This document shows, piece after piece, positions 581 to 38,089 of a stretch of 64,000 nucleotides of DNA. The notes below the pieces were generated by a model. That model was not told where the DNA came from, did no database searches, and saw only the letters and a list, made by a program, of their open reading frames with translations. Position numbers and translations under genes: made by a program. This DNA is from Enterobacteria phage phiC600P9. The stretch lies in the sequence record MZ681930.1; one strand, written 5' to 3'. Within the stretch, counting starts at the first letter, position 1, and each line of letters opens with the position of its first letter.

Positions 581-815
581 CCTTAATACAAGATACAGCC
601 ATATCTTGTAATGATTTAGGTGTGTCATTATCTAAAATGTTGAAGTTAAAAGATACAGCCCAGTCAGTGCAGACCGTAACCTTTTTAATACAATTATCTT
701 CAACCTCTAACGGTTCAAACCAATATTCAATAATTTCTTTATGACCAATATCATCTTTTACTTCGCATTCAAAATGCTGACTCATCATAACATTTTTAAA
801 TTCATCAAAAGTCAT
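552..815 (-). CDS. Hypothetical protein
   Basis: Track ORF, 87 aa; its start overlaps the gp47 stop (ATGA-type coupling). Confidence 0.5.
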   Translation of the reverse strand: MTFDEFKNVMMSQHFECEVKDDIGHKEIIEYWFEPLEVEDNCIKKVTVCTDWAVSFNFNILDNDTPKSLQDMAVSCIKDAYCEVFDI

Positions 816-1831
816 TGTGTTGCCTCTACATATAACTGATTTGCATATTGAATAAGTGCTTCGCGGTCAGAATCAGTGATGTCTGGAATTGCATTAATGT
901 ATTCTTCCATCAACGTCTGAAGAGATTGAACTTCAACTTCTTCGCTATCATCTGACTCGACAGAGTTATCAATTTTTGACACAACTCGTAATGAATGCAC
1001 AACTTTTTCTAGTTCAGATTCGAACTTCGTTAGATTTTTGTCTACTTCAGTTACTATAACACGTACTGATAGATTTGTAAAATCTTTATAGTCAATTTTT
1101 CCCTTAAATGGATATTGAATTCGACGATGCCAGGTAGTGTTGTTTGGAATAAATTCCATTCGTTCTGTTTCTGTATCAAACATCCAGAACCCGCGAGGGT
1201 CATTCTCGTCACCTGCAGTTAATGTCCATGGTGTCCCAATATATCTAACGTTAGCAGCCTCAGAGATAGTATGGAAGTGACCAGACCACACTTCTTTGTA
1301 AGTCTTAAGGAAATCAGGTTCAAGACCGTGAGATTTCATTCCTTTATAAAAATAAAATCCATTCAGTTCCCAGTGACCAACACAAAAAGAAGCAGATGAA
1401 GTTTTGATGTGTTCAAGAATTTCACCAGTATTTTCTTCACACATCCAAGGAATTAAATCAATCAAACATCCGTCAAAATCTACTGTAGTAGGCTTATCAT
1501 ATACTTTAACATTAGGATATTTAGCCAAAAGCTCAGTAGAAGCATTTGGATGCATTACATTTTTATAGTGGAGATCGTGATTTCCTACAATAGTATGTAA
1601 TGTGATTCCAGCGTCATCAAGCATTTGAACTATTTCACGGGCAAACTCCATAGTTTTATGCGTGATCGCTTTTCGTACATCAAAAATATCACCGTATTGA
1701 ATCCATACAGTAATTCCATTTTTCTTAGAATATTCTATCGCTTGCTTAATTCCGTCAAGTTGAATACCGCGAATCCATTCATCATCAGCTTTAACGCCTA
1801 AATGCCAATCACCCAAGTTTAGTATTTTCAT
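812..1831 (-). CDS. 47: Recombination endonuclease subunit gp47 (Mre11/SbcD-like metallophosphoesterase)
   Basis: 339 aa, same length as T4 gp47; phosphoesterase motifs LGDWHLG and GNHDLH; ATG verified. Confidence 0.92.
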   Translation of the reverse strand: MKILNLGDWHLGVKADDEWIRGIQLDGIKQAIEYSKKNGITVWIQYGDIFDVRKAITHKTMEFAREIVQMLDDAGITLHTIVGNHDLHYKNVMHPNASTELLAKYPNVKVYDKPTTVDFDGCLIDLIPWMCEENTGEILEHIKTSSASFCVGHWELNGFYFYKGMKSHGLEPDFLKTYKEVWSGHFHTISEAANVRYIGTPWTLTAGDENDPRGFWMFDTETERMEFIPNNTTWHRRIQYPFKGKIDYKDFTNLSVRVIVTEVDKNLTKFESELEKVVHSLRVVSKIDNSVESDDSEEVEVQSLQTLMEEYINAIPDITDSDREALIQYANQLYVEATQ

Positions 1832-2432
1832 GGTGTCTTTTCCATCCTAATTTAGCTGCTTTTGAAACTAGTTCTTTAATTTTTCCTTTTGTCCATTCAG
1901 GACCAGGAGGTTCATGACATAACATTTGCTTAACTCCGTTATTATACCATTTTTTACCTTTATTATGCGATGAAGCTTTAAATTTATTTGACCTTCCTTT
2001 TACATAGCCTTCTGGAATATACGGTAAAAAGGCAGATTTTCCTGTTAATGGGTCATGTGAATGTATGTTTCCTTTACAATTATGAGAACCATATAATGGA
2101 TGATTTTGTCCTTTAATATCTCTTCCAAATGAACCTTTTGGAGCAGCATATGACATATTAAAGAATAATGGATTTTTAACCGCATCATGCAAACGTTGAT
2201 AATATAACTCACATTTAATAGCTTCTTCGCGCGTATCAAATTCATCTAAAATGCATGAATCAAATAAATGTGGGTTATCTGAAAGTTCTTCATTATAAAT
2301 TTTCTTATACTTTTTAGATAAAACTGATCCATGATATCCGGCTAAATGCCTATCTAAAGATGTAGATCCAATATAAAAAGGAGGAAGTTTATCTCCACTA
2401 TATATTGTTAAATAAGTTATATATTTTTTCAT
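1809..2432 (-). CDS. GIY-YIG family endonuclease-like protein (Seg-like homing endonuclease candidate)
   Basis: 207 aa; N-terminal PFYIGSTSLDRHLAGYHGS ... FDSCILDEF ... ELYYQ resembles the GIY-YIG catalytic domain; basic Gly/His/Lys-rich C-terminus suggests DNA binding; 3' end overlaps gene 47 start by 23 nt. Confidence 0.6.
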   Translation of the reverse strand: MKKYITYLTIYSGDKLPPFYIGSTSLDRHLAGYHGSVLSKKYKKIYNEELSDNPHLFDSCILDEFDTREEAIKCELYYQRLHDAVKNPLFFNMSYAAPKGSFGRDIKGQNHPLYGSHNCKGNIHSHDPLTGKSAFLPYIPEGYVKGRSNKFKASSHNKGKKWYNNGVKQMLCHEPPGPEWTKGKIKELVSKAAKLGWKRHHENTKLG

Positions 2433-2608
2433 ATATCAAGAACCGTCATTGAAATGCAAAATAAAATTATTGAAATAAATCCATCTGGAGTGCTAAAGAA
2501 CCCAATCCAGCACGCTCTAGTGAATAGATAAAATGCAAGAAAAAGTATCACATATCCAAGAAATATCATTATATCAAACTCCGTATAAAGCTAAAGGGCC
2601 GAAGCCCT

Positions 2609-3811
2609 TTATTTTGTAATAATGTCAAACTGTTCTTTAAAGCAGAAGCTTGAATCTTGATGTTGATACAAAAATTCATACGCTTTTTCTCGCTCACGGT
2701 CATAAAGAGCTCGGTCAGATGACAGTTCTTTAATACGTTCAAATGTTGATTCCATGTCATTTTCATCAAACCAAACGATACCGCTATCATGAGAAATTAA
2801 CGGAGTATTATCAACACGGAATTTTAAATTTTCGCCAGTAGATTTCCAAAATACTGGAATTGTTCCGCATGCACCAAGCTCGAGATGAGTATATTCTAAA
2901 GAACGCTGTAGATATTTTTTATCTAATTTACTCAGCTGATAACCAAATCCGGATTTACTCATGCGTTCAAGCATTTCGCTATTTACATAACGGTCGAGAA
3001 TTTGCGTTGGCAAATTAGGAGCAATTTTAATTTGGTCTACTTGATGAAGACGATAATACTCGTATGGAATTCCTTTTTCTTTAATAGGAATGAACGCTGG
3101 AGAACGTTCCAGACCTTCCATAATAGTACTTAGTCCTGCAGGTTTAAGATGTTTTTCATGAAAATCAAACATCTGATAAAAGCCTTTCCATGTAGTAGTA
3201 CGACCAATCCAACGGTTGATATTCATGTTAATTTCAGAAACATCTTTCCAGTAGGTTGATCGAACCTTCGCAATATCCATAGGAGGCTGAAAGTTATATA
3301 CGGTCGGTGCTTCTTCAATATCATCAAACAGAGAAACTGTTTCTGGATACCATTCTTTCATTAAAACTTTATTAAAATCGCCATTATCAGAATGGCTAAA
3401 AATAACATCAGCTCGACGAACAGTTTCTTCTAATCCCAAATTTCGACGCAAAGAAAGAGAAGAATGGTCATGCTGATAAACTACAACACGAACCGAAGGT
3501 TTAATGTTATCAATAATTTTTTTATAGTTATTAATTGTGTCTTCTTCGACTGAAGTAGCAGGAACTGAATTGATAACTAGAATATCACAATCATTTACCA
3601 GCTTAAGTGTTTTATCGTATTCTTTTGCCAATAAAACCGGAATTGAAAATGACTTATAATCATGTGCGCAATTACGAGTAAATGATTTATCTTTAGCATA
3701 AACCAAAGTTACTTCATGACCATTTTTAATAAACCAATCACGTTGCTCAAGAGAAAATTTAGTTACACCGCAACCTTCAAGACCTCGAGCCATAAAAATA
3801 CATACTTTCAT
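2609..3811 (-). CDS. a-gt: DNA alpha-glucosyltransferase
   Basis: 400 aa; N-terminus MKVCIFMARGLEGCGVTKFSLEQRDWFIKNGHEVTLVYAKDK matches T4 a-gt as I remember it; ATG verified. Confidence 0.88.
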   Translation of the reverse strand: MKVCIFMARGLEGCGVTKFSLEQRDWFIKNGHEVTLVYAKDKSFTRNCAHDYKSFSIPVLLAKEYDKTLKLVNDCDILVINSVPATSVEEDTINNYKKIIDNIKPSVRVVVYQHDHSSLSLRRNLGLEETVRRADVIFSHSDNGDFNKVLMKEWYPETVSLFDDIEEAPTVYNFQPPMDIAKVRSTYWKDVSEINMNINRWIGRTTTWKGFYQMFDFHEKHLKPAGLSTIMEGLERSPAFIPIKEKGIPYEYYRLHQVDQIKIAPNLPTQILDRYVNSEMLERMSKSGFGYQLSKLDKKYLQRSLEYTHLELGACGTIPVFWKSTGENLKFRVDNTPLISHDSGIVWFDENDMESTFERIKELSSDRALYDREREKAYEFLYQHQDSSFCFKEQFDIITK

Positions 3812-3835
3812 TTAATATCCTCATTGTTTTGGTTT

Positions 3836-3860
3836 ATTTTACCAAAAATTTATAAAGCAA
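3836..3860 (-). promoter_or_regulatory. Candidate MotA-dependent middle promoter for a-gt
   Basis: Minus-sense TTGCTTTA (MotA-box-like), 12-nt spacer, then TAAAAT -10, about 25 nt upstream of the a-gt ATG. Confidence 0.45.
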
Positions 3861-4226
3861 TATAGGAGCCGAAGCTCCTATCCGCATAATACGCCATACA
3901 GAGGCTCATTAGAGCTTCTAAATTTTATACGCTTATATGTTATAGTTCCTTCTGCTTTAGCTTTATCATGAGACTCTTTAAAGCGTCTCATCATTTCTAC
4001 TTTAGAGGAACGAATTTTATTATAATCTATTTCACAAGTCTGGGCGTTCATCTTTCACAGTTGCCACCATTTTTTGACTTGATAAGAATCAACCCACACT
4101 TTCATATTAGGGTCTGCTCTTACAATAGGAGGATTAACTTCTTTGATTGAACTATCATGGTATTCTTTTTCAGAAATTTTCACGCAAAGATGACCATTCA
4201 AAGATTCAGTAAATCCTGCATTAATT

Positions 4227-31667: not shown

Positions 31668-32062
31668 CGTGATTCCTTAACAAATTTCATAATTTCATCA
31701 AATTCATACGCGGCAAGTTTAAGCTGATGTTCCTTTTTAATCTTTTTACACTGTGCTTTCCAATCACGTACGCGTTTACGATAATGCCTTCCTTGATACC
31801 AGTATCCTACCCAATTTACAGGTACTAATAAAAATGGAACTATTAATGGAAGAATTAGCATTAACACAAGTATTTCGCCAGAATCAATATCAGTCATAAC
31901 ATCTAAAACACCTCCAATAATCAATAGAATTACAAATGATATGAGTATAACAGGACCTATTAACACATCAGTAGGAATTATCTGGCGCTTTAATTCATAC
32001 TTTAAGGGTTTACTTGGAAGATACATTGATGGCTTTGACATATTCTCTACATTCCTTAACAA
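31649..32062 (-). CDS. Membrane protein
   Basis: 137 aa with two hydrophobic helices; basic C-terminus. Confidence 0.5.
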   Translation of the reverse strand: MLRNVENMSKPSMYLPSKPLKYELKRQIIPTDVLIGPVILISFVILLIIGGVLDVMTDIDSGEILVLMLILPLIVPFLLVPVNWVGYWYQGRHYRKRVRDWKAQCKKIKKEHQLKLAAYEFDEIMKFVKESRCKSQN

Positions 32063-32618
32063 ATTTTTCTAGTAATAAATCGCTTTCAAAACTAGGATTT
32101 TCCACGAATTTATCAAAAAGATCATCAACAATAGTTAAGATATTCTTTTTACTAAGAATACGTTTATTTTCATGCTTCGTTTCAGAATCAACTATAAGAG
32201 TAAAGAAATATTTCTTTCCCTGAAATTTTACTGTAGTATCAATATAGAATAAATTTGACTTTTGTAAGTTACGTTTAAACCATGCGTCACTTAAACTATA
32301 AACACCGAGATAATCAAAATCGTCGTTTAAATAACATACTGTCCATTCAGGAGAAATGAAATCAGTAAATTCAACATCAAAATCACACGTCAATGAATGA
32401 ATTGATTCAATACTGTTAATAAGTATTCCAGGACGTATTAAAGACTTTTTACCTCTGGAAAATCTTCCAGAAAGACTTTCATTAGTTTCATATGAAGAAC
32501 CCCAATAATAATTACGCCCTTCTGCCATACGTTTAAGAGCATTTAATAATTGGTCTGGAACATCAACTTGTCTTTGGAATTCTTCAAACATTGAATTGAA
32601 ATCAATTTGCATTCTCAT
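32010..32618 (-). CDS. Hypothetical protein
   Basis: Track ORF, 202 aa. Confidence 0.5.
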   Translation of the reverse strand: MRMQIDFNSMFEEFQRQVDVPDQLLNALKRMAEGRNYYWGSSYETNESLSGRFSRGKKSLIRPGILINSIESIHSLTCDFDVEFTDFISPEWTVCYLNDDFDYLGVYSLSDAWFKRNLQKSNLFYIDTTVKFQGKKYFFTLIVDSETKHENKRILSKKNILTIVDDLFDKFVENPSFESDLLLEKFVKECREYVKAINVSSK

Positions 32619-32638
32619 TCTTATTTACTCCAAGTAAT

Positions 32639-32654
32639 AGGGGCCGAAGCCCCT
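32639..32654 (-). terminator. Stem-loop (GGGGC-UUCG-GCCCC)
   Basis: Hairpin aggggc-cgaa-gcccct just after the stop of ORF 32660..33253. Confidence 0.45.
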
Positions 32655-32659
32655 TATCA

Positions 32660-33253
32660 TTATTTCAGAGAATTAATGTATTCCTGAACATCGGCAGAGG
32701 TAGTTTCAACCCCAGAAATATTACCATTAAAGGTTTCAACTCGAGCAAGAGTATCTTCAATATCAACCTTAGTCAGTGCTGCAATTTCAACTACATCATC
32801 GGCAGTACTAATTCCAAGTGCATTCGCTGCACGAGTTTCACGGATATATTCCAATTTAACTGCAAGTTCTTGGCGAGCATCATCCAATTCAACTACTTTC
32901 TTGGCGATTTCAATTCGCATTTCAGCATACCCATCAGCTTTAGTAGTTAACTGTTCAGCTGTTCGACGATATAGCAAGCCGAGTTTAGCATGCATTGTTA
33001 CATCTTGACCTTCGGAAAGAAGCTTGCGAATTTCACGCTCTTTTGATTCAGCCTGTTTATTCTTTTCAATAACAAGTTCACGAATACGTTTTTCTTCATT
33101 AATAGATTTAACAGAAGCAGTTTTTAGATCTTTAATTTTATCAAGTAGTTTTGCTGCTGCAGCAGTATACTGTTCTTCAACAGATAGATTTTTAGCCATA
33201 GCAGAACCAAGTTTAGTGCGAATAAACTCAACAATTTTCTTCAGTGTGTTCAT
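32660..33253 (-). CDS. Coiled-coil protein (possible PspA/IM30-like fold)
   Basis: 197 aa, predicted almost entirely helical with heptad-like charge pattern; family assignment tentative. Confidence 0.45.
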
Positions 33254-33309
33254 AGTATTTCCTTAGGTTGGTATAATTAGATAATATCACGTTTTAATAG
33301 ATGGTAAAC

Positions 33310-33645
33310 TTATTCTTCGTCTAGCTCGTCGATAAAGACGTTGATGGCCTCGATAACGGCATCATTGATAGCTAATAAAATAAAATCATCGTCAGTACCT
33401 TTAGAAGATTCTAAAGCATTGATATATGCTTGGTTGGCGAGTTCCCAAGCCTTTTTAAAATAAGGAGCTTCATCATCAGGACAAATATCCCGCACGCCTT
33501 CAAAGATACGTTTGGCATAATCTAACACCCATTGTACAGGCATGTTTTGAGAACGTTCGTTAAACTCTTTAAAGTCCTTAGATTCAAAAAGCTCTTCAGG
33601 ATAATTATTTCTATTACAAAAAGCTTTACTAAAGTTACGTTTCAT
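33310..33645 (-). CDS. Hypothetical acidic protein
   Basis: Track ORF, 111 aa. Confidence 0.5.
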   Translation of the reverse strand: MKRNFSKAFCNRNNYPEELFESKDFKEFNERSQNMPVQWVLDYAKRIFEGVRDICPDDEAPYFKKAWELANQAYINALESSKGTDDDFILLAINDAVIEAINVFIDELDEE

Positions 33646-33701
33646 AATGTTTTCCTCATTTGTATAGGCTCATAATATCTCAATCATGAGCCTATGTAAA
33701 C

Positions 33702-33965
33702 TTATTTCATATTATTGAAATATTCTTCTGCGATTTCGTCGTTATCATGGTAAACTTTAGAAGACAGTTTAACATAACTTTCAGCAGTGAACATGTTAAT
33801 CACAACCTTTACAGTATACCACTGACCATCTTCATTACCCATTACTGCGTAAGTTTCAAACATCGGATGATCAGGACCGATAACTTTAATATCATTCACT
33901 GTACGACCAAAATCTTCTGAAACACATTTCATAAAGAAGTTGAACAGTTCACCGTAATTATCCAT
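33702..33965 (-). CDS. Hypothetical protein
   Basis: Track start 33977 is TTG; ATG 33965 has SD GGAG; 87 aa. Confidence 0.5.
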   Translation of the reverse strand: MDNYGELFNFFMKCVSEDFGRTVNDIKVIGPDHPMFETYAVMGNEDGQWYTVKVVINMFTAESYVKLSSKVYHDNDEIAEEYFNNMK

Positions 33966-34135
33966 TTCATTCTCCAAGTTGTTTTCTGTATCAGTAGTTG
34001 ATAGTTGTATAGTACCATGGAAGAACAGGGAAGTTTTAGGGAATTCTAGGGCAGGGAGGGGAAATCAAAGGATAGGATAATATATTATAAAGGGTAGAAA
34101 CTAAATGATGTCTAGAGAGGCCTGGAAAGGCCTAG

Positions 34136-34171
34136 ATACCAAAAAGCCCCAACCTTTCGGCTAGGGCTAAG
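34136..34171. repeat. 36-bp direct repeat, copy 1 (contains terminator hairpin)
   Basis: ataccaaaaagccccaacctttcggctagggctaag; matches 34691..34726 at 35 of 36 positions. Confidence 0.9.
34141..34170 (-). terminator. Rho-independent terminator (10-bp stem, GAAA loop, U5)
   Basis: Minus-sense AGCCCUAGCC-GAAA-GGUUGGGGCU followed by UUUUU, 6 nt after the stop of ORF 34176..34649. Confidence 0.7.
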
Positions 34172-34175
34172 AATG

Positions 34176-34649
34176 TTATTTGATTTGTTTAGCAGACCAA
34201 ATGCGGTCTTTAATAATTTTTTGGATGTCTTCAACATATTCAAGAGAGTGAACATGTGGGTTATCTTTGAAACTATAAGCACGAGCTAGCTTTTGGCCTT
34301 CAGTTTTGATTACTAAAAGCTCTTTAAGGATAGCTTCATATCTGGAGATAATTCCTTTAACGATATTTTTCTCTTGTGTGACTTTAGGATCTGCTTTAGG
34401 AGCAGGTTTACCCGAAGCCTTTGCAAAAGCAGCGCCAGTAGCAACTAAACTTTTCCAGGCCATACTAACTGCATTCCCTGTAAATCCTTCGGCTTTCATA
34501 TCACGAGCAAATTGGAATCGTGATTCATCGGAAGCATCTTTATAGGAATATTTACCCGCGGCAATGGCTGCTTTTGCGACAGCTTGAATTTCGGTGCTAG
34601 ATGCTTCATTTAACACCGCTTCATTTAAAAATTGAGCATATGATTTCAT
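34176..34649 (-). CDS. Internal-protein-like protein with capsid-targeting sequence
   Basis: 157 aa; N-terminal MKSYAQFLNEAVLNEA (CTS-like, LxE sites); Ala/Lys-rich; ATG verified; flanked by the 36-bp direct repeats. Confidence 0.6.
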   Translation of the reverse strand: MKSYAQFLNEAVLNEASSTEIQAVAKAAIAAGKYSYKDASDESRFQFARDMKAEGFTGNAVSMAWKSLVATGAAFAKASGKPAPKADPKVTQEKNIVKGIISRYEAILKELLVIKTEGQKLARAYSFKDNPHVHSLEYVEDIQKIIKDRIWSAKQIK

Positions 34650-34690
34650 CTTATTTCCTGTTTTAATTCGTGGTTTTAATATACTTATTT

Positions 34691-34726
34691 ATACCAAAAA
34701 GCCCCAACCTTTCGGCTGGGGCTAAG
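34691..34726. repeat. 36-bp direct repeat, copy 2 (contains terminator hairpin)
   Basis: ataccaaaaagccccaacctttcggctggggctaag; pairs with 34136..34171. Confidence 0.9.
34696..34725 (-). terminator. Rho-independent terminator
   Basis: Minus-sense AGCCCCAGCC-GAAA-GGUUGGGGCU plus UUUUU, downstream of the stable-RNA region. Confidence 0.7.
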
Positions 34727-34775
34727 CCTTGCGGCAACCTTGTCGGGGTTCCACCTGCTAAGGCAAGTGTTTGTA

Positions 34776-34866
34776 CGAAACGCCGGGACTTGAACCCGGT
34801 TATTAAGTAGTTGACGCTACTCAATATTTTTAAAAGGCCATATCTCGACCATATCCGAACGTTCCG
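34776..34866 (-). ncRNA. tRNA-like stable RNA (candidate analog of T4 species 1/2 RNAs)
   Basis: 7-bp acceptor-like stem (CGGAACG/CGUUUCG) and canonical T-arm CCGGG-UUCAAGU-CCCGG, but oversized non-canonical body (91 nt); no ORF; lies downstream of tRNA cluster. Confidence 0.4.
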
Positions 34867-34869
34867 TCA

Positions 34870-35034
34870 AAAACGCTACTCGGCTTACGGCAAAGATATT
34901 TCCTCGAATCGATAATTCGGTGCGCCGTTTCTGCTGTGATGTAAGGGGATATTAACAAATCGTAAAGATTTATTAAGACCAGTCCTTACTCAGGGAACAT
35001 CAGTCCGACGACTTACCGGTAGCGACCCGGTTTC
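34870..35034 (-). ncRNA. Second structured non-coding segment (possible stable RNA)
   Basis: 165-nt ORF-free region between ORF 35035..35385 and the tRNA-like element; boundaries not determined. Confidence 0.25.
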
Positions 35035-35385
35035 TTAATATTCTTTTAAAGCATCAATCTGTTCACGGCGTTTACGCCATAAATCAATTGCTTCATACGC
35101 GGATTCAGCATTTCGAATTGGTCGGCATTTATGTAAAGACTTGTGATTTTGATATTTTGTAGATAATGGAATTTTATCTAAAAGGTCTTTACGTTCAAAG
35201 TATTCGTAACCATCTAAACCAAATGAACGATTTTTGAGAAATTGCCAATGACCGTATTCGTTTTGGATGTAAATATAATCCGCGTGTTGATAAAGCAAAT
35301 TAGTTTCACGAGATGAGATATGGTTTTCATATTCATTGAAGTAAAATGTTAAATCATGAACTACTAAATAAACATTACCTTTCAT
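35035..35385 (-). CDS. Hypothetical protein
   Basis: 116 aa; Tyr/His-rich; ATG verified; sits between tRNA-Arg and the stable-RNA region. Confidence 0.5.
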   Translation of the reverse strand: MKGNVYLVVHDLTFYFNEYENHISSRETNLLYQHADYIYIQNEYGHWQFLKNRSFGLDGYEYFERKDLLDKIPLSTKYQNHKSLHKCRPIRNAESAYEAIDLWRKRREQIDALKEY

Positions 35386-35403
35386 ATTTTCCTCACTTAT
35401 AAT

Positions 35404-35479
35404 TGGTCGAGGCAGTAGGGATCGAACCTACGACCCAGGACTTAGAAGGTCCTTGCTCTTCCTTCTGAGCTATGCCTCG
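35404..35479 (-). tRNA. tRNA-Arg (anticodon TCT)
   Basis: Hand-folded cloverleaf: acceptor CGAGGCA/TGCCTCG, anticodon loop CTTCTAA, T-loop GGTTCGATCC, encoded CCA. Confidence 0.85.
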
Positions 35480-35483
35480 TATT

Positions 35484-35558
35484 TGGCGGACGTGATAGGA
35501 TTCGAACCTATAACCAATCGCTTAACAGGCGATCGCTCTGCCATTGAGCTACACATCC
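35484..35558 (-). tRNA. tRNA-Asn (anticodon GTT)
   Basis: Acceptor GGATGTG/CACGTCC, anticodon stem ATCGC/GCGAT with loop CTGTTAA, T-loop TTCGAAT, CCA encoded. Confidence 0.8.
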
Positions 35559-35562
35559 AAAT

Positions 35563-35649
35563 TGGTGGGGAGTGATGGAGTCGAACCACCCGAGTCGCAA
35601 TGACAATGGATTTACAGTCCACACCGCTACCTCTACGGGATAACTCCCC
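35563..35649 (-). tRNA. tRNA-Tyr (anticodon GTA), long variable arm
   Basis: 87 nt; acceptor GGGGAGT/ACTCCCC, anticodon loop CTGTAAA, long variable arm, CCA encoded. Confidence 0.8.
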
Positions 35650-35658
35650 AAATTAATT

Positions 35659-35733
35659 TGGTGGCCCTGGGTGGAATTGAACCACCATCTGGCGATTATG
35701 AGTCGCTTGCTTGAACCTTCCAGCTACAGGGCC
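35659..35733 (-). tRNA. tRNA with anticodon CAT (Met or lysidine-modified Ile)
   Basis: Acceptor GGCCCTG/CAGGGCC, anticodon loop CTCATAA, T-loop TTCAATT, CCA encoded. Confidence 0.75.
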
Positions 35734-35734
35734 T

Positions 35735-35810
35735 TGGTGCTGATTGACGGAATCGAACCGCCGACCTTCTCATTACAAGTGAGTTGCTCTACCTACTGAG
35801 CTAAATCAGC
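35735..35810 (-). tRNA. tRNA-Thr (anticodon TGT)
   Basis: Acceptor GCTGATT/AATCAGC, anticodon loop CTTGTAA, T-loop TTCGATT, CCA encoded. Confidence 0.85.
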
Positions 35811-35815
35811 AAAAC

Positions 35816-35905
35816 TGGCGGAGGCGATAGGATTTGAACCTATGAGTCGCCGGAGCGACTGCCGGTTTTCAAGACCGGTGCATTAAACCACTCTGCCACG
35901 CCTCC
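35816..35905 (-). tRNA. tRNA-Ser (anticodon TGA), long variable arm
   Basis: 90 nt; acceptor GGAGGCG/CGCCTCC, anticodon stem CCGGT/ACCGG with loop CTTGAAA, CCA encoded. Confidence 0.85.
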
Positions 35906-35908
35906 AAA

Positions 35909-35916
35909 TATTTATA
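35909..35916 (-). promoter_or_regulatory. Late promoter motif TATAAATA upstream of tRNA-Ser
   Basis: Exact TATAAATA on the minus strand, 4 nt upstream of the tRNA-Ser 5' end and overlapping the segB-like stop. Confidence 0.35.
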
Positions 35917-36562
35917 TATTGCTAATTTGATTTAGAATTCTTTTTGCTTGAGTATGACTTACGCCAATATGCTTAGCATATTTAGATAATTCACCACGCT
36001 TAGAAAAATCATATAATTTAGAAATTTCTATTCTTCTTTTTCTTTCATCCGCAGAAACTTTTGCTTCGTTTGCTTTTGCTATTTTACGTTTAGCTTCTTG
36101 AGAATGATTTTTACCAGCAAAGCCATTCTTCATTAATCCATTTGAAGACCATCCTTTTAATTTTCCGTTAGAATGTGCCTTTTTAACACCCAATGAAATT
36201 AATTCGCGTTGCTGATCTGTCATAGGATAATTATTTATATGGTCCCATCCACCTTCTCCGCCAAGTTTTAAATTATACACATCTGGTCTATTTAAAAACT
36301 CTTCTGTGACAATATTTTTCTCGGCTTCAAGCATAGATTCTTTATCATCAAAATACTCTAATATTTCTTTAGAGAAATTTTCTATACCATACTTGTCTTG
36401 GGCTCTTTTTAATAATTTACCAGAACCCATATATCCATCATCTAAATTTTCGGTAGAATGCACACCAATATAAATTTTATTATTAATTTTATTTGTTATT
36501 TTATAAAGATAAAAATGCATATCAGTCCCTAATAAAGAACTGAGCGTCTCACGACGAGTCAT
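35912..36562 (-). CDS. segB: GIY-YIG homing endonuclease (SegB-like)
   Basis: 216 aa; GIY-YIG motif YLYKITNKINNKIYIGVHS ... GYMGSG; basic C-terminal DNA-binding region; located between the two tRNA subclusters as T4 segB. Confidence 0.85.
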   Translation of the reverse strand: MTRRETLSSLLGTDMHFYLYKITNKINNKIYIGVHSTENLDDGYMGSGKLLKRAQDKYGIENFSKEILEYFDDKESMLEAEKNIVTEEFLNRPDVYNLKLGGEGGWDHINNYPMTDQQRELISLGVKKAHSNGKLKGWSSNGLMKNGFAGKNHSQEAKRKIAKANEAKVSADERKRRIEISKLYDFSKRGELSKYAKHIGVSHTQAKRILNQISNI

Positions 36563-36566
36563 AAAT

Positions 36567-36640
<74 letters not shown>

Positions 36641-36645
36641 AAATT

Positions 36646-36732
36646 TGGTGCGAGAAGTGGGACTCGAACCCACAAGGAAATCATTCCGCAGCATTTTAAG
36701 TGCTGTGCCTTTACCAATTTGACCATTCTCGC
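36646..36732 (-). tRNA. tRNA-Leu (anticodon TAA), long variable arm
   Basis: 87 nt; acceptor GCGAGAA/TTCTCGC, anticodon stem CAGCA/TGCTG with loop CTTAAAA, CCA encoded. Confidence 0.85.
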
Positions 36733-36733
36733 G

Positions 36734-36806
36734 CTGGGAATAAAGGACTCGAACCTTTGCATCCTGGAATCAAAATCCAGTGCCTTACCAACTTGGCTAA
36801 TTCCCA
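36734..36806 (-). tRNA. tRNA-Gln (anticodon TTG)
   Basis: Acceptor TGGGAAT/ATTCCCA, anticodon stem CTGGA/TCCAG with loop TTTTGAT; 3' CCA not encoded. Confidence 0.8.
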
Positions 36807-36903
36807 ATTATTAACAAAGGCTCTCAAGCAAGAACCCTTGATGATAGAGGGTATTAATCAGTGCGATATGAGTTAATAATAACAAATAATTCTTAAAGCA
36901 TAT

Positions 36904-37191
36904 TTACCATTTATGATAATACATATTTACGATGCATTCAAGACCCAAAGGATTCTTGAAAATATCATATTCAAGAGGACCTTTTTCTGTTTCAATAAAG
37001 AAATCAAAATTTACTGTATTAAATTTACGGTCTTCCTTTACTAATTTAACCTGCGAAGATGAACGATCAATGTAAACCTTTTCAACTTCAAAACATGTTA
37101 AAATGCCATAATCATCAATCAAGGCTTTAGCCGCATCTTGATCATATTTATATCCATTTTCAACGGACGATACTTTCGCATAAAGAATCAT
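36904..37191 (-). CDS. Hypothetical protein
   Basis: Track ORF, 95 aa. Confidence 0.5.
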   Translation of the reverse strand: MILYAKVSSVENGYKYDQDAAKALIDDYGILTCFEVEKVYIDRSSSQVKLVKEDRKFNTVNFDFFIETEKGPLEYDIFKNPLGLECIVNMYYHKW

Positions 37192-37193
37192 TA

Positions 37194-37583
37194 TCAGCCT
37201 TCATCAACAATAGTATGCGTATTGGCATTTACGATTTGCCACCAATCAAAGCGATTAGAACCATAATCTGGTTTGTTTTCATTTTCTTTGATAATGTCAC
37301 GAAGTTCATCTTCAGTAGCGGCTTTCGCGATTAAATCAGCATATCCACCACGAGGATAATAATTATCACCTGCAAAAAGTAAAAAGTTTGGTTTAATGTT
37401 ATTGAACTCTTCAAGAGTAATAACTTTTCCTGACGGTTGAACAATCTCTACATATTTATACCCCAATTTTTGAGCAGCATCTACTGCTCCAAGCAAAGTA
37501 TCATGAGCCCATCCAATTTGACAACCTGGCTTTTCAGATGGATTAGCCTGATAATCCGCATACACTTTGTACATTCTATTCAC
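37194..37583 (-). CDS. Hypothetical protein
   Basis: Track ORF, 129 aa. Confidence 0.5.
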   Translation of the reverse strand: MNRMYKVYADYQANPSEKPGCQIGWAHDTLLGAVDAAQKLGYKYVEIVQPSGKVITLEEFNNIKPNFLLFAGDNYYPRGGYADLIAKAATEDELRDIIKENENKPDYGSNRFDWWQIVNANTHTIVDEG

Positions 37584-37761
37584 CTTTAGAAATTTTATCC
37601 ATAACGATAGCGATTAAACCAATTAAAAATGCTACTACAAGTGAAAACACATTTTCTGCTGTAGTTAATAATCCGCATATAAATCCAACAAACATTGAAA
37701 AACTAAAAGCGGAAGCAGAAATTGCAATAGCAACATTTCGAATTAATTCACAACGTTTCAT
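37576..37761 (-). CDS. Small membrane protein
   Basis: Track start 37821 is TTG inside the promoter; ATG 37761 has SD GAGGAGAA; hydrophobic core. Confidence 0.5.
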   Translation of the reverse strand: MKRCELIRNVAIAISASAFSFSMFVGFICGLLTTAENVFSLVVAFLIGLIAIVMDKISKGE

Positions 37762-37789
37762 TTTATTCTCCTCTGTAGTTGATAGGGTA

Positions 37790-37819
37790 ATAGTATCACT
37801 ACTAAAACCCCGTGTAAAC
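37790..37819 (-). promoter_or_regulatory. T4-type early promoter
   Basis: Minus-sense GTTTACA, 17 nt, GTGATACTAT; near-identical to the promoter at 38120..38149 including the upstream A/T tract. Confidence 0.6.
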
Positions 37820-37831
37820 AACTTTGTGAAA

Positions 37832-38089
37832 TTATTTTAAATCTTCTAATCGTTTCTTCATCTTAGAACCGTTCTTAGCGATTTCGCCTGCATCAGAGCA
37901 TAATGCTAAAAGCGCTTTAACTTTAGTTTGGTCTCCTTTAAAAGATGAAGGATCGACTGCAGCAGCAAGTTCTTTAATACGAGAGAAAAGACGCTCAGCT
38001 TCAGCTAAAGCCATTCCAAGCTTTACTTCCATACCATGAGAAGATTCAGTAATAGTAGTTTTTGTAGCAAACTCTTTGAAAGTTTTCAT
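37832..38089 (-). CDS. Internal-protein-like protein with capsid-targeting sequence (ipI locus)
   Basis: 85 aa; N-terminal MKTFKEFATKTTITESSHGME; occupies the position between 57B and the tRNA region where T4 has ipI; ATG verified. Confidence 0.6.
   Translation of the reverse strand: MKTFKEFATKTTITESSHGMEVKLGMALAEAERLFSRIKELAAAVDPSSFKGDQTKVKALLALCSDAGEIAKNGSKMKKRLEDLK

Follow-up and report, generated by a model that had tools for sequence, protein, structure and literature searches.

A predicted Seg-type homing endonuclease gene inserted at the 47.1/47 junction of the T4-related phage phiC600P9

Introduction

What is an extra gene doing directly in front of gene 47, a conserved recombination gene, in a relative of phage T4? 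We analysed 64,000 nucleotides (nt) of the Tequatrovirus phiC600P9 (record MZ681930.1), hereafter the window, in which an open reading frame (ORF) of 207 amino acids (aa) overlaps the start of gene 47. The first 6 kb of the window match phiC600P9 record MT630408.1 (positions 32001-38000) at 100% identity. Our results indicate that this seg-like ORF probably encodes a free-standing Seg-type homing endonuclease, with a GIY-YIG domain and a SegE-like basic C-terminus, carried by a 601-nt cassette at the ATGA junction of genes 47.1 and 47.

That seg-like genes are unevenly spread over the relatives of T4 has been on record since 2010 at the latest (PMC2993671 Table 5; also PMC2988022), and the general behaviour of Seg enzymes has been described (PMC2988022, PMC2330249). 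Several depositors already label the seg-like ORF a putative homing endonuclease. Literature searches on phiC600P9, on seg-like genes in Tequatrovirus and on homing endonuclease genes at gene 47 yielded no paper describing this gene or this site.

Results

The cassette lies exactly at the junction of 47.1 and 47

In T4 (NC_000866), 47.1 and 47 are contiguous and joined by an ATGA overlap, with no gene between them, and the same arrangement was found in T2, RB14 and RB51. Alignment of the window with T4 showed that the two genomes are identical through ...GATATATGAAAA, after which a 601-nt block present only in the window is followed by gene 47 again. The flanks are collinear with T4, and the block lies exactly at the ATGA junction. 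The features of the insertion are as follows:

1809..2432, minus strand: seg-like ORF, predicted Seg-type GIY-YIG homing endonuclease (207 aa, ATG start)
1832..2432, minus strand: inserted cassette, 601 nt relative to T4-type genomes (pairwise alignment with T4)
2426..2432, minus strand: ATGAAAA, left-hand copy of a direct repeat of 7 nt, at the seg-like ORF start (sequence and T4 alignment)
1825..1831, minus strand: ATGAAAA, right-hand copy of this direct repeat, at the gene 47 start (sequence and T4 alignment)
1809..1831, minus strand: 23-nt overlap of the seg-like 3' end with the gene 47 start, in different frames (ORF coordinates and sequence)
2429..2432, minus strand: ATGA, the 47.1 stop overlapping the seg-like start codon (ORF coordinates and sequence)

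Since the cassette begins and ends with ATGAAAA, the seg-like ORF occupies the former start context of gene 47: the left copy is the original gene 47 translation start context and is now used by the seg-like ORF. At the other end, the ORF overlaps the gene 47 start, so that the stretch upstream of the gene 47 ATG consists of seg-like coding sequence and now reads GGATGGAAAAGACACC, the ORF's own 3' codons. The ORF is free-standing, being located within neither an intron nor an intein. The neighbouring features are:

812..1831, minus strand: gene 47, SbcD/Mre11-like recombination nuclease subunit (98.5% identical to T4 gp47)
2429..2569, minus strand: gene 47.1, predicted membrane protein of 46 aa (T4 annotation; PHROG 6693, E 1.5e-31)
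2592..2611, no strand assigned: GC-rich hairpin, located between 47.1 and a-gt (terminator annotation in the relatives fPS-90 and Kha5h)
2609..3811, minus strand: a-gt, DNA alpha-glucosyltransferase (Pfam AGT, E 5e-236)

A preliminary description made from the window's sequence had reported the 207-aa ORF with its motifs and the 23-nt out-of-frame overlap with gene 47, both of which were recovered here on the minus strand. It knew of no seg gene at this position in T4, which is correct, and its proposal of a free-standing gene inserted between conserved genes was borne out by the T4 alignment and by the junctions read below. Its placement of the ORF between gene 47 and a-gt holds on the gene 47 side; on the a-gt side, 47.1 intervenes. 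We also observed that the nucleotide sequence of 47.1 is conserved in all the junctions read, yet many records leave the gene without annotation, among them T2 MH751506, Killian, Phaginator, sb1, EPIMAM01 and SHFML-26.

The encoded protein has a predicted GIY-YIG fold and is closest to SegE among T4 proteins

In structure comparison, the AlphaFold model of the seg-like protein matched the I-TevI catalytic domain best, and all of its strong structural neighbours are GIY-YIG nucleases. The I-TevI/UvrC-type fold, a three-stranded sheet with the GIY and YIG strands against helices, is present in the model. Two regions were distinguished:

2133..2432, minus strand: N-terminal GIY-YIG nuclease domain, about residues 1-100 (predicted local distance difference test, pLDDT, 94-98 over residues 1-90; 46-homologue alignment; fold matches)
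1812..2120, minus strand: C-terminal basic region, about residues 105-207, presumed DNA-binding module (secondary structure; hairpin pLDDT 87-93)

The N-terminal domain carries Y7/Y11, Y20-I21-G22, Y33-x-G35, R68, E75 and N92, and the ORF contains the motifs PFYIGSTSLDRHLAGYHGS (residues 18-36), FDSCILDEF (57-65) and ELYYQ (75-79). Across an alignment of 46 homologues, Y33, G35, S39, L56, F57, A71, E75 and N92 are invariant, while Y7, T9, Y11, Y20, I21, G22 and R68 are conserved at 90% or more; the latter group includes the GIY/YIG motif tyrosines Y7 and Y11 (YLTIY) and the Y20-I21-G22 triplet. Residues E75 and N92 correspond to the Glu and Asn conserved in SegA-G and lie no more than one column away from E75 and N90 of I-TevI. 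The protein is predicted to be an active nuclease.

A Pfam scan returned GIY-YIG (PF01541) as the sole match, at 20.1 bits against a gathering score of 22.6 (E 8e-4), such a score being an operational threshold and not a structural criterion, and the match covers profile positions 2-74 of 78 (73/78). The NCBIfam search gave no match. The C-terminal region contains a GxNHPLYG motif, two predicted beta-hairpins and a KWYNNG...PEWTKGK motif. NUMOD3 (PF07460) gave no Pfam match in the protein at E<=1, and the GxNHPLYG stretch alone aligns with the start of the NUMOD3 repeats of homologues, among which Pfam matches were found for NUMOD3 in 22/46 and for GIY-YIG in 15/46 at E<=0.01. In the full set of 169 homologues from the database search, the N-terminal ~110 residues are conserved and the C-termini are variable, many of them carrying NUMOD3. 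The divergent GIY-YIG core suggested in the preliminary description agrees with the structural neighbours of the model. Its Seg-like basic C-terminus stands insofar as this region aligns with the T4 SegE C-terminus, with the refinement that no NUMOD domain was detected in the protein itself.

For profile comparison, SegA-G, I-TevI, I-TevII and EndoII were taken from the T4 record. Searched with the profile of the seg-like family, SegE scored 43 bits, followed by SegG (22), SegC (20), SegD (19), SegA (14), SegF (5) and I-TevI (3). Alignment of the family profile with SegE by hhalign gave a probability of 96.7% (E 3.8e-10) over 181 columns, spanning the GIY strand to the C-terminal motif, which is KWYNNG...PEWTKGK here and FWVNNG...PDGFIKGR in SegE; the same comparison with I-TevI gave only a weak NUMOD3-like stretch (probability 19%). 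In a multiple alignment, the seg-like protein and the Seg proteins have in common the catalytic Glu, the Asn of the YxN motif and the hallmark GYxGS, which reads DGYMGSG in SegA-E, and the homology to SegA-G reaches both the nuclease domain and the C-terminal region.

These comparisons bear on a competing label. The protein belongs to phrog_10820 (E 7.6e-94), described as "HNH endonuclease", and more weakly to phrog_314 ("homing endonuclease"); RefSeq product names for ECO4, teqhad, fPS-90, QL01 and others likewise read HNH endonuclease, as do the G4507 and SmallBear records. However, Pfam yields only GIY-YIG and no HNH or beta-beta-alpha-metal family at E<=1, the model's structural neighbours belong to the GIY-YIG nucleases, T4 SegE can be aligned with the family profile, and other depositors name the same family GIY-YIG or SegE. 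We therefore rejected an HNH identity, which has practically no chance of being right: judged by its modelled fold the protein is a GIY-YIG nuclease, judged by its sequence it is a SegE-like Seg protein, and the HNH label is wrong.

The cassette is sporadic and linked to four synonymous substitutions

An IMG/VR scan with gp47 retrieved only 30 loci, few of them from Tequatrovirus, and the population analysis is based on the GenBank phage collection. By megablast, the seg-like ORF occurs in 68 phage records, all at 95-100% identity, and the surrounding junction in 558 records, 509 of them at full length. The gene is thus sporadic and not universal, being carried by ~13% of close relatives. Distant homologues were detected by tblastn in 174 records at various loci, with some genomes holding multiple copies, up to seven in a Rhizobium phage. 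In a spread sample of the junction hits, the extra length of carriers was 601 nt, or 602 nt in ZCEC15, with no other size; the 477-nt deletion variant of KNP1/KNP5 came from other searches.

We read 15 junctions, six occupied and nine empty. The insert is intact and 601 nt long in the window, Killian, fPS-90 and G4507; it is 602 nt in ZCEC15, where a frameshift truncates the annotated coding sequence (CDS), 477 nt in KNP5 because of an internal deletion, and 0 nt in the nine empty genomes. One further feature distinguishes the carriers:

1814..1823, minus strand: four synonymous substitutions at gene 47 nt 9, 10, 15 and 18 (A, C, C, G in the window, where T4 has T, T, T, A; junction reads)

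Both the ACCG and the T4-type forms encode MKILNLGDW at the start of gene 47. The ACCG form was found in 6/6 carriers read, and TTTA (T4, T2, Kha5h, OE5505, Phaginator, RB51, sb1) or TCTA (RB14) in 8/9 empty genomes read. Among the 15 junctions, there were no other carrier-specific differences within 48 nt upstream or 36 nt downstream. Beyond those limits the flanks are mosaic, with fPS-90 having a T4-like a-gt 3' haplotype and the other carriers another one; mosaic flanks around an identical cassette would be consistent with its transfer in mixed infection. Over all records, the combinations of site and allele are as follows, where the counts include duplicate GenBank/RefSeq records and related isolates and do not represent independent events:

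Occupied, ACCG: 67 records
Occupied, T4-type (ERS-1): 1 record
Empty, ACCG: 9 records
Empty, T4-type: about 424 records

The ACCG form (76 records) is thus present in 67/68 occupied genomes versus 9 of about 433 empty ones. This linked site polymorphism would be indirect evidence for a site-specific double-strand cut in the allele without the gene. The nine empty ACCG records are SHFML-26 (two records), EPIMAM01, UGKSEcP1, UGKSEcP2, PBM-1, Ec_YwIITB1, BCPEco_001 and BCPSen_003, which lie on at least two flanking haplotypes, T4-like (SHFML-26) and RB51-like (EPIMAM01). These genomes are most simply read as having received the cassette and then lost it precisely, by deletion between the ATGAAAA repeats; possibly, they instead represent a pre-existing resistant allele.

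Orthologues occupy the same site in other genera

Four orthologues in other lineages also lie directly 5' of gene 47 and overlap its start:

Salmonella SEA1 (Gelderlandvirus): Seg 80% aa identity, gene 47 overlap 23 nt, gp47 73%
Klebsiella SmallBear (unclassified): Seg 71% aa identity, gene 47 overlap 17 nt, gp47 70%
Escherichia QL01 (Dhakavirus): Seg 61% aa identity, gene 47 overlap 14 nt, gp47 72%
Klebsiella EI (Marfavirus): Seg 59% aa identity, gene 47 overlap 17 nt, gp47 67%

These proteins have 202-206 aa and the same architecture as the one in the window, and the EI copy is annotated "SegE homing endonuclease". In contrast, the genes upstream of them are different, neither a-gt nor 47.1 being present there in QL01, EI and SEA1, and the first 18 nt of gene 47 differ in each genus. 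A paralogue in Mosigvirus G2285, located 5' of a topoisomerase gene, is ~65% identical in the nuclease domain and has a NUMOD3-type C-terminus, which illustrates the usual modular swapping of DNA-binding ends.

Between two Tequatrovirus cassette variants, the ratio of nonsynonymous to synonymous divergence (dN/dS) is 0.04-0.08 at a dS of 0.12-0.17; against the orthologues of other genera it is 0.08-0.30, where dS is saturated. These values indicate that the seg-like protein is under purifying selection. Because of the low within-genus ratio and the 169 database protein matches at E<=1e-3, the ORF is not a chance reading frame.

Expression and candidate target

The hairpin between a-gt and 47.1 carries a terminator annotation in relatives, and from its position the seg-like gene would share the 47.1-47 transcription unit; the ATGA overlap of the 47.1 stop with its start codon implies translational coupling. 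The gene thus appears to ride on the 47.1-47-46 unit, translationally coupled to 47.1. The TATAAATA late-promoter motif is absent anywhere near the ORF, sigma-70-like sites are at chance level (8 found versus 7.1 expected), and RNA folds around the start codons of the seg-like gene and of gene 47 do not exceed those of shuffled sequence in stability. Given these chance-level sites and shuffled-like folds, we dropped a dedicated promoter or a hairpin that would mask a ribosome-binding site.

The insertion point lies six codons upstream of the following element of gene 47:

1796..1813, minus strand: gene 47 codons 7-12 (G-D-W-H-L-G), part of the proposed recognition region (5' ends compared in five genera)

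The Pfam Metallophos domain covers gp47 residues 1-187, and we take GDWHLG to be motif I (DxH) of the calcineurin-like/Mre11-SbcD phosphoesterases. At the nucleotide level, GG(T/A)GATTGGCA(T/C)TTAGG is conserved in four of the five lineages compared, with QL01 more diverged, and the preceding 18 nt are variable. Homing endonucleases typically recognise functionally constrained sequences, and free-standing ones may cut away from the insertion site (PMC2988022). We infer that the target of the enzyme is the uninterrupted 47.1/47 junction region of T4-type genomes.

Other homing-endonuclease loci in the window and in relatives

The tRNA cluster contains a second Seg-type gene, of 216 aa, at 35912-36562 on the minus strand, flanked by tRNA-Ser (35816-35905) and tRNA-Gly (36567-36640). 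Its product shares 83% identity with T4 SegB across SegB residues 19-117 and has a different C-terminal half, and the place of the gene in the tRNA array differs from that of T4 segB (between tRNA-Arg and tRNA-Ile). The TATAAATA motif overlaps its 3' end at 35909-35916 and occurs again inside the gene at 36232-36239. At 3812-3877, T4 mobB, an HNH homing endonuclease gene between a-gt and a-gt.2, is absent, with a-gt.2 directly after a-gt. In tblastn searches of the 64-kb window, T4 MobB, MobC, MobD, MobE, I-TevI, I-TevII and SegG had no match, and SegA and SegC-F matched only the segB-like gene at ~36 kb. The window is therefore without T4 homing endonuclease genes apart from this segB-like gene and the gene 47 cassette.

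In Shigella phage SHFML-26, a "homing endonuclease" CDS (record positions 98111-98965; positions 2989-3060 of the stretch read) stands directly 3' of 46.1, where T4 gene 46 begins, and T2 MH751506 has a 615-nt "hypothetical protein T2_56" (positions 1-386 of the stretch read) at the equivalent position. A further variable or homing-endonuclease-associated spot may lie in the 5' region of gene 46.

Discussion

We propose that in a mixed infection the enzyme would cut the uninterrupted 47.1/47 junction region of a cassette-less relative, next to the conserved codons of the metal-binding GDWHLG motif of gp47, and that recombinational repair would transfer the cassette with very little flanking sequence to the genome that was cut. 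In the carrier, the site would be protected by the insertion, which splits the target, and probably also by the four synonymous substitutions at the gene 47 start, all within its first 18 nt. With no promoter of its own, the cassette appears to be read within the 47.1-47-46 transcription unit; it takes over the ATGA-coupled start context that belonged to gene 47 and provides that gene with a new upstream region, made of the 3' end of the seg-like coding sequence. The stages found in nature comprise intact copies, frameshifted (ZCEC15) and internally deleted (KNP1/KNP5) copies, and nine empty sites keeping ACCG.

Several observations weigh against this proposal. The Pfam GIY-YIG score is 2.5 bits under the gathering score, and PDB sequence searches with the single protein and with a 46-sequence profile gave no relevant chain, so that the link to I-TevI is made only through fold comparison. 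With regard to the catalytic residues, the Glu and Asn are invariant in the family; the I-TevI segment with Arg27 aligns to a gap in all Seg-type proteins, and position 28 is R here and K/R/N across the 46 homologues. For characterised Seg enzymes, the cut can lie some way from the insertion site (PMC2988022), and the real cut site of the seg-like enzyme may not be at the junction. ERS-1 (PP337211.1 28657-31716) is occupied yet has a T4-type gene 47 5' end, and the four substitutions are therefore not strictly required alongside the insert; its seg-like copy has several compensating frameshifts with a net length of 601 nt in a record flagged UNVERIFIED_ORG, and may have decayed, come from recombination or reflect sequencing errors. 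The literature search yielded no cleavage, homing or marker-exclusion experiment on the seg-like protein. Finally, the Seg divergence between genera roughly follows that of gp47, and as the two sets of identities are similar in size, long vertical residence with losses fits them as well as active spread does.

This last point leads to the reading that the gene is an old resident being lost by repeated deletion, for example between the ATGAAAA repeats, rather than a homing gene, and that it may move nothing now. Same-site orthologues in at least four other lineages, the nine empty ACCG genomes on at least two flanking haplotypes, as expected from precise deletion between 7-nt repeats, and the frameshifted and deleted copies all agree with it. 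We nevertheless regard it as unlikely, since the cassette sits at 95-100% nucleotide identity on mosaic a-gt/gene 47 haplotypes with a linkage of only 18 nt, the catalytic Glu and Asn are invariant, and a dN/dS of 0.04-0.08 is hard to explain for a gene without activity. Nor does it exclude the homing endonuclease explanation, because loss and gain both belong to the usual homing cycle.

Selection could also have kept the protein for a function other than homing, either as a DNA-binding regulator of the 47-46 operon or, with no copying of the gene, as a nuclease against the DNA of a competitor phage or the host. The embedding of the ORF in the translation signals of gene 47, an essential recombination gene, through the ATGA coupling to 47.1 and the 23-nt overlap, and the strong purifying selection would suit such a role, for which I-TevI, documented as both endonuclease and autorepressor, is a precedent (PMC2988022). 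However, the gene is dispensable, given that ~87% of close relatives are without it, and it bears the marks of a selfish element in being sporadically distributed, in having degenerate copies and in its tight linkage to a site polymorphism. Neither an operator-like repeat nor an RNA structure was detected at the two start codons. We consider this explanation very improbable. A bolder version of the homing endonuclease explanation, which we offer as a speculation with a small chance of being right, is that the cassette is more than a passenger and is functionally coupled to the gp47 repair machinery that it exploits, gp47 being listed in a review of T4 mobile DNA as a nuclease possibly acting in homing. 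On this view the cassette would target the codons for metal-binding motif I of gp47 and be entangled with gene 47 through the start context that it took over and the upstream region that it supplies. If so, the endonuclease or its translation would modulate gp47/gp46 expression, or the entanglement would make the cassette hard to lose, and at least four genera would have kept this coupling.

In the wider context of phage biology, a new Seg-type endonuclease beside gene 47 is expected; it is a real but ordinary selfish gene. Its value lies in adding to the classic T-even system a predicted Seg-type homing endonuclease with a defined and easily testable candidate target, for which three natural allele classes (empty T4-type, empty with the four synonymous changes, and occupied) are ready substrates. 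The very short linked tract, at most 18-36 nt, would inform on co-conversion lengths. In addition, the "HNH endonuclease" label in PHROG 10820 and in many RefSeq phage records should be corrected.

Comparison with known systems

By profile, T4 SegE is the closest T4 protein to the seg-like family. Both have YIG...GYxGS, the F..IL..F..T.EEA..E helix with the catalytic Glu, the YxNM Asn motif and a C-terminal WxNNG...PxGxxKGR, and they are similar in size (205 aa in SegE and 207 aa here). Both are also free-standing and lie just 5' of a conserved DNA-metabolism gene, which SegE does by adjoining uvsW. On the other hand, their pairwise identity is ~28%, and the site and presumed target is the hoc-uvsW region for SegE versus 47.1/47 here. 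The Seg hallmark DGY(M/L)GSG is replaced by AGYHGSV in the seg-like protein and is followed by an extra stretch, SKKYKKIYNEEL. SegE activity has been demonstrated (Kadyrov et al. 1997, as cited in PMC2988022), whereas the seg-like protein is known here from sequence and model.

The catalytic domain of I-TevI (PDB 1LN0/1MK0), in spite of its similar fold, has no sequence-level match with the seg-like protein. I-TevI differs further in being intron-encoded, in having a zinc-finger linker and a helix-turn-helix domain, and in its Arg27 helix, which falls in a gap of the Seg-type proteins. As to lifestyle, SegF and SegG provide the model of a free-standing GIY-YIG gene that lies between conserved genes and overlaps the end of a neighbour: T4 segF overlaps gene 56 as the seg-like ORF overlaps gene 47. 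SegG shares the PP(Y/F)YIGS motif and scores 22 bits with the family profile, while SegF is hardly detectable by sequence (5 bits). For SegF and SegG the cleavage sites and co-conversion tracts have been measured (PMC2988022, PMC2993671), whereas the seg-like protein at the 47.1/47 junction is a predicted member of this group.

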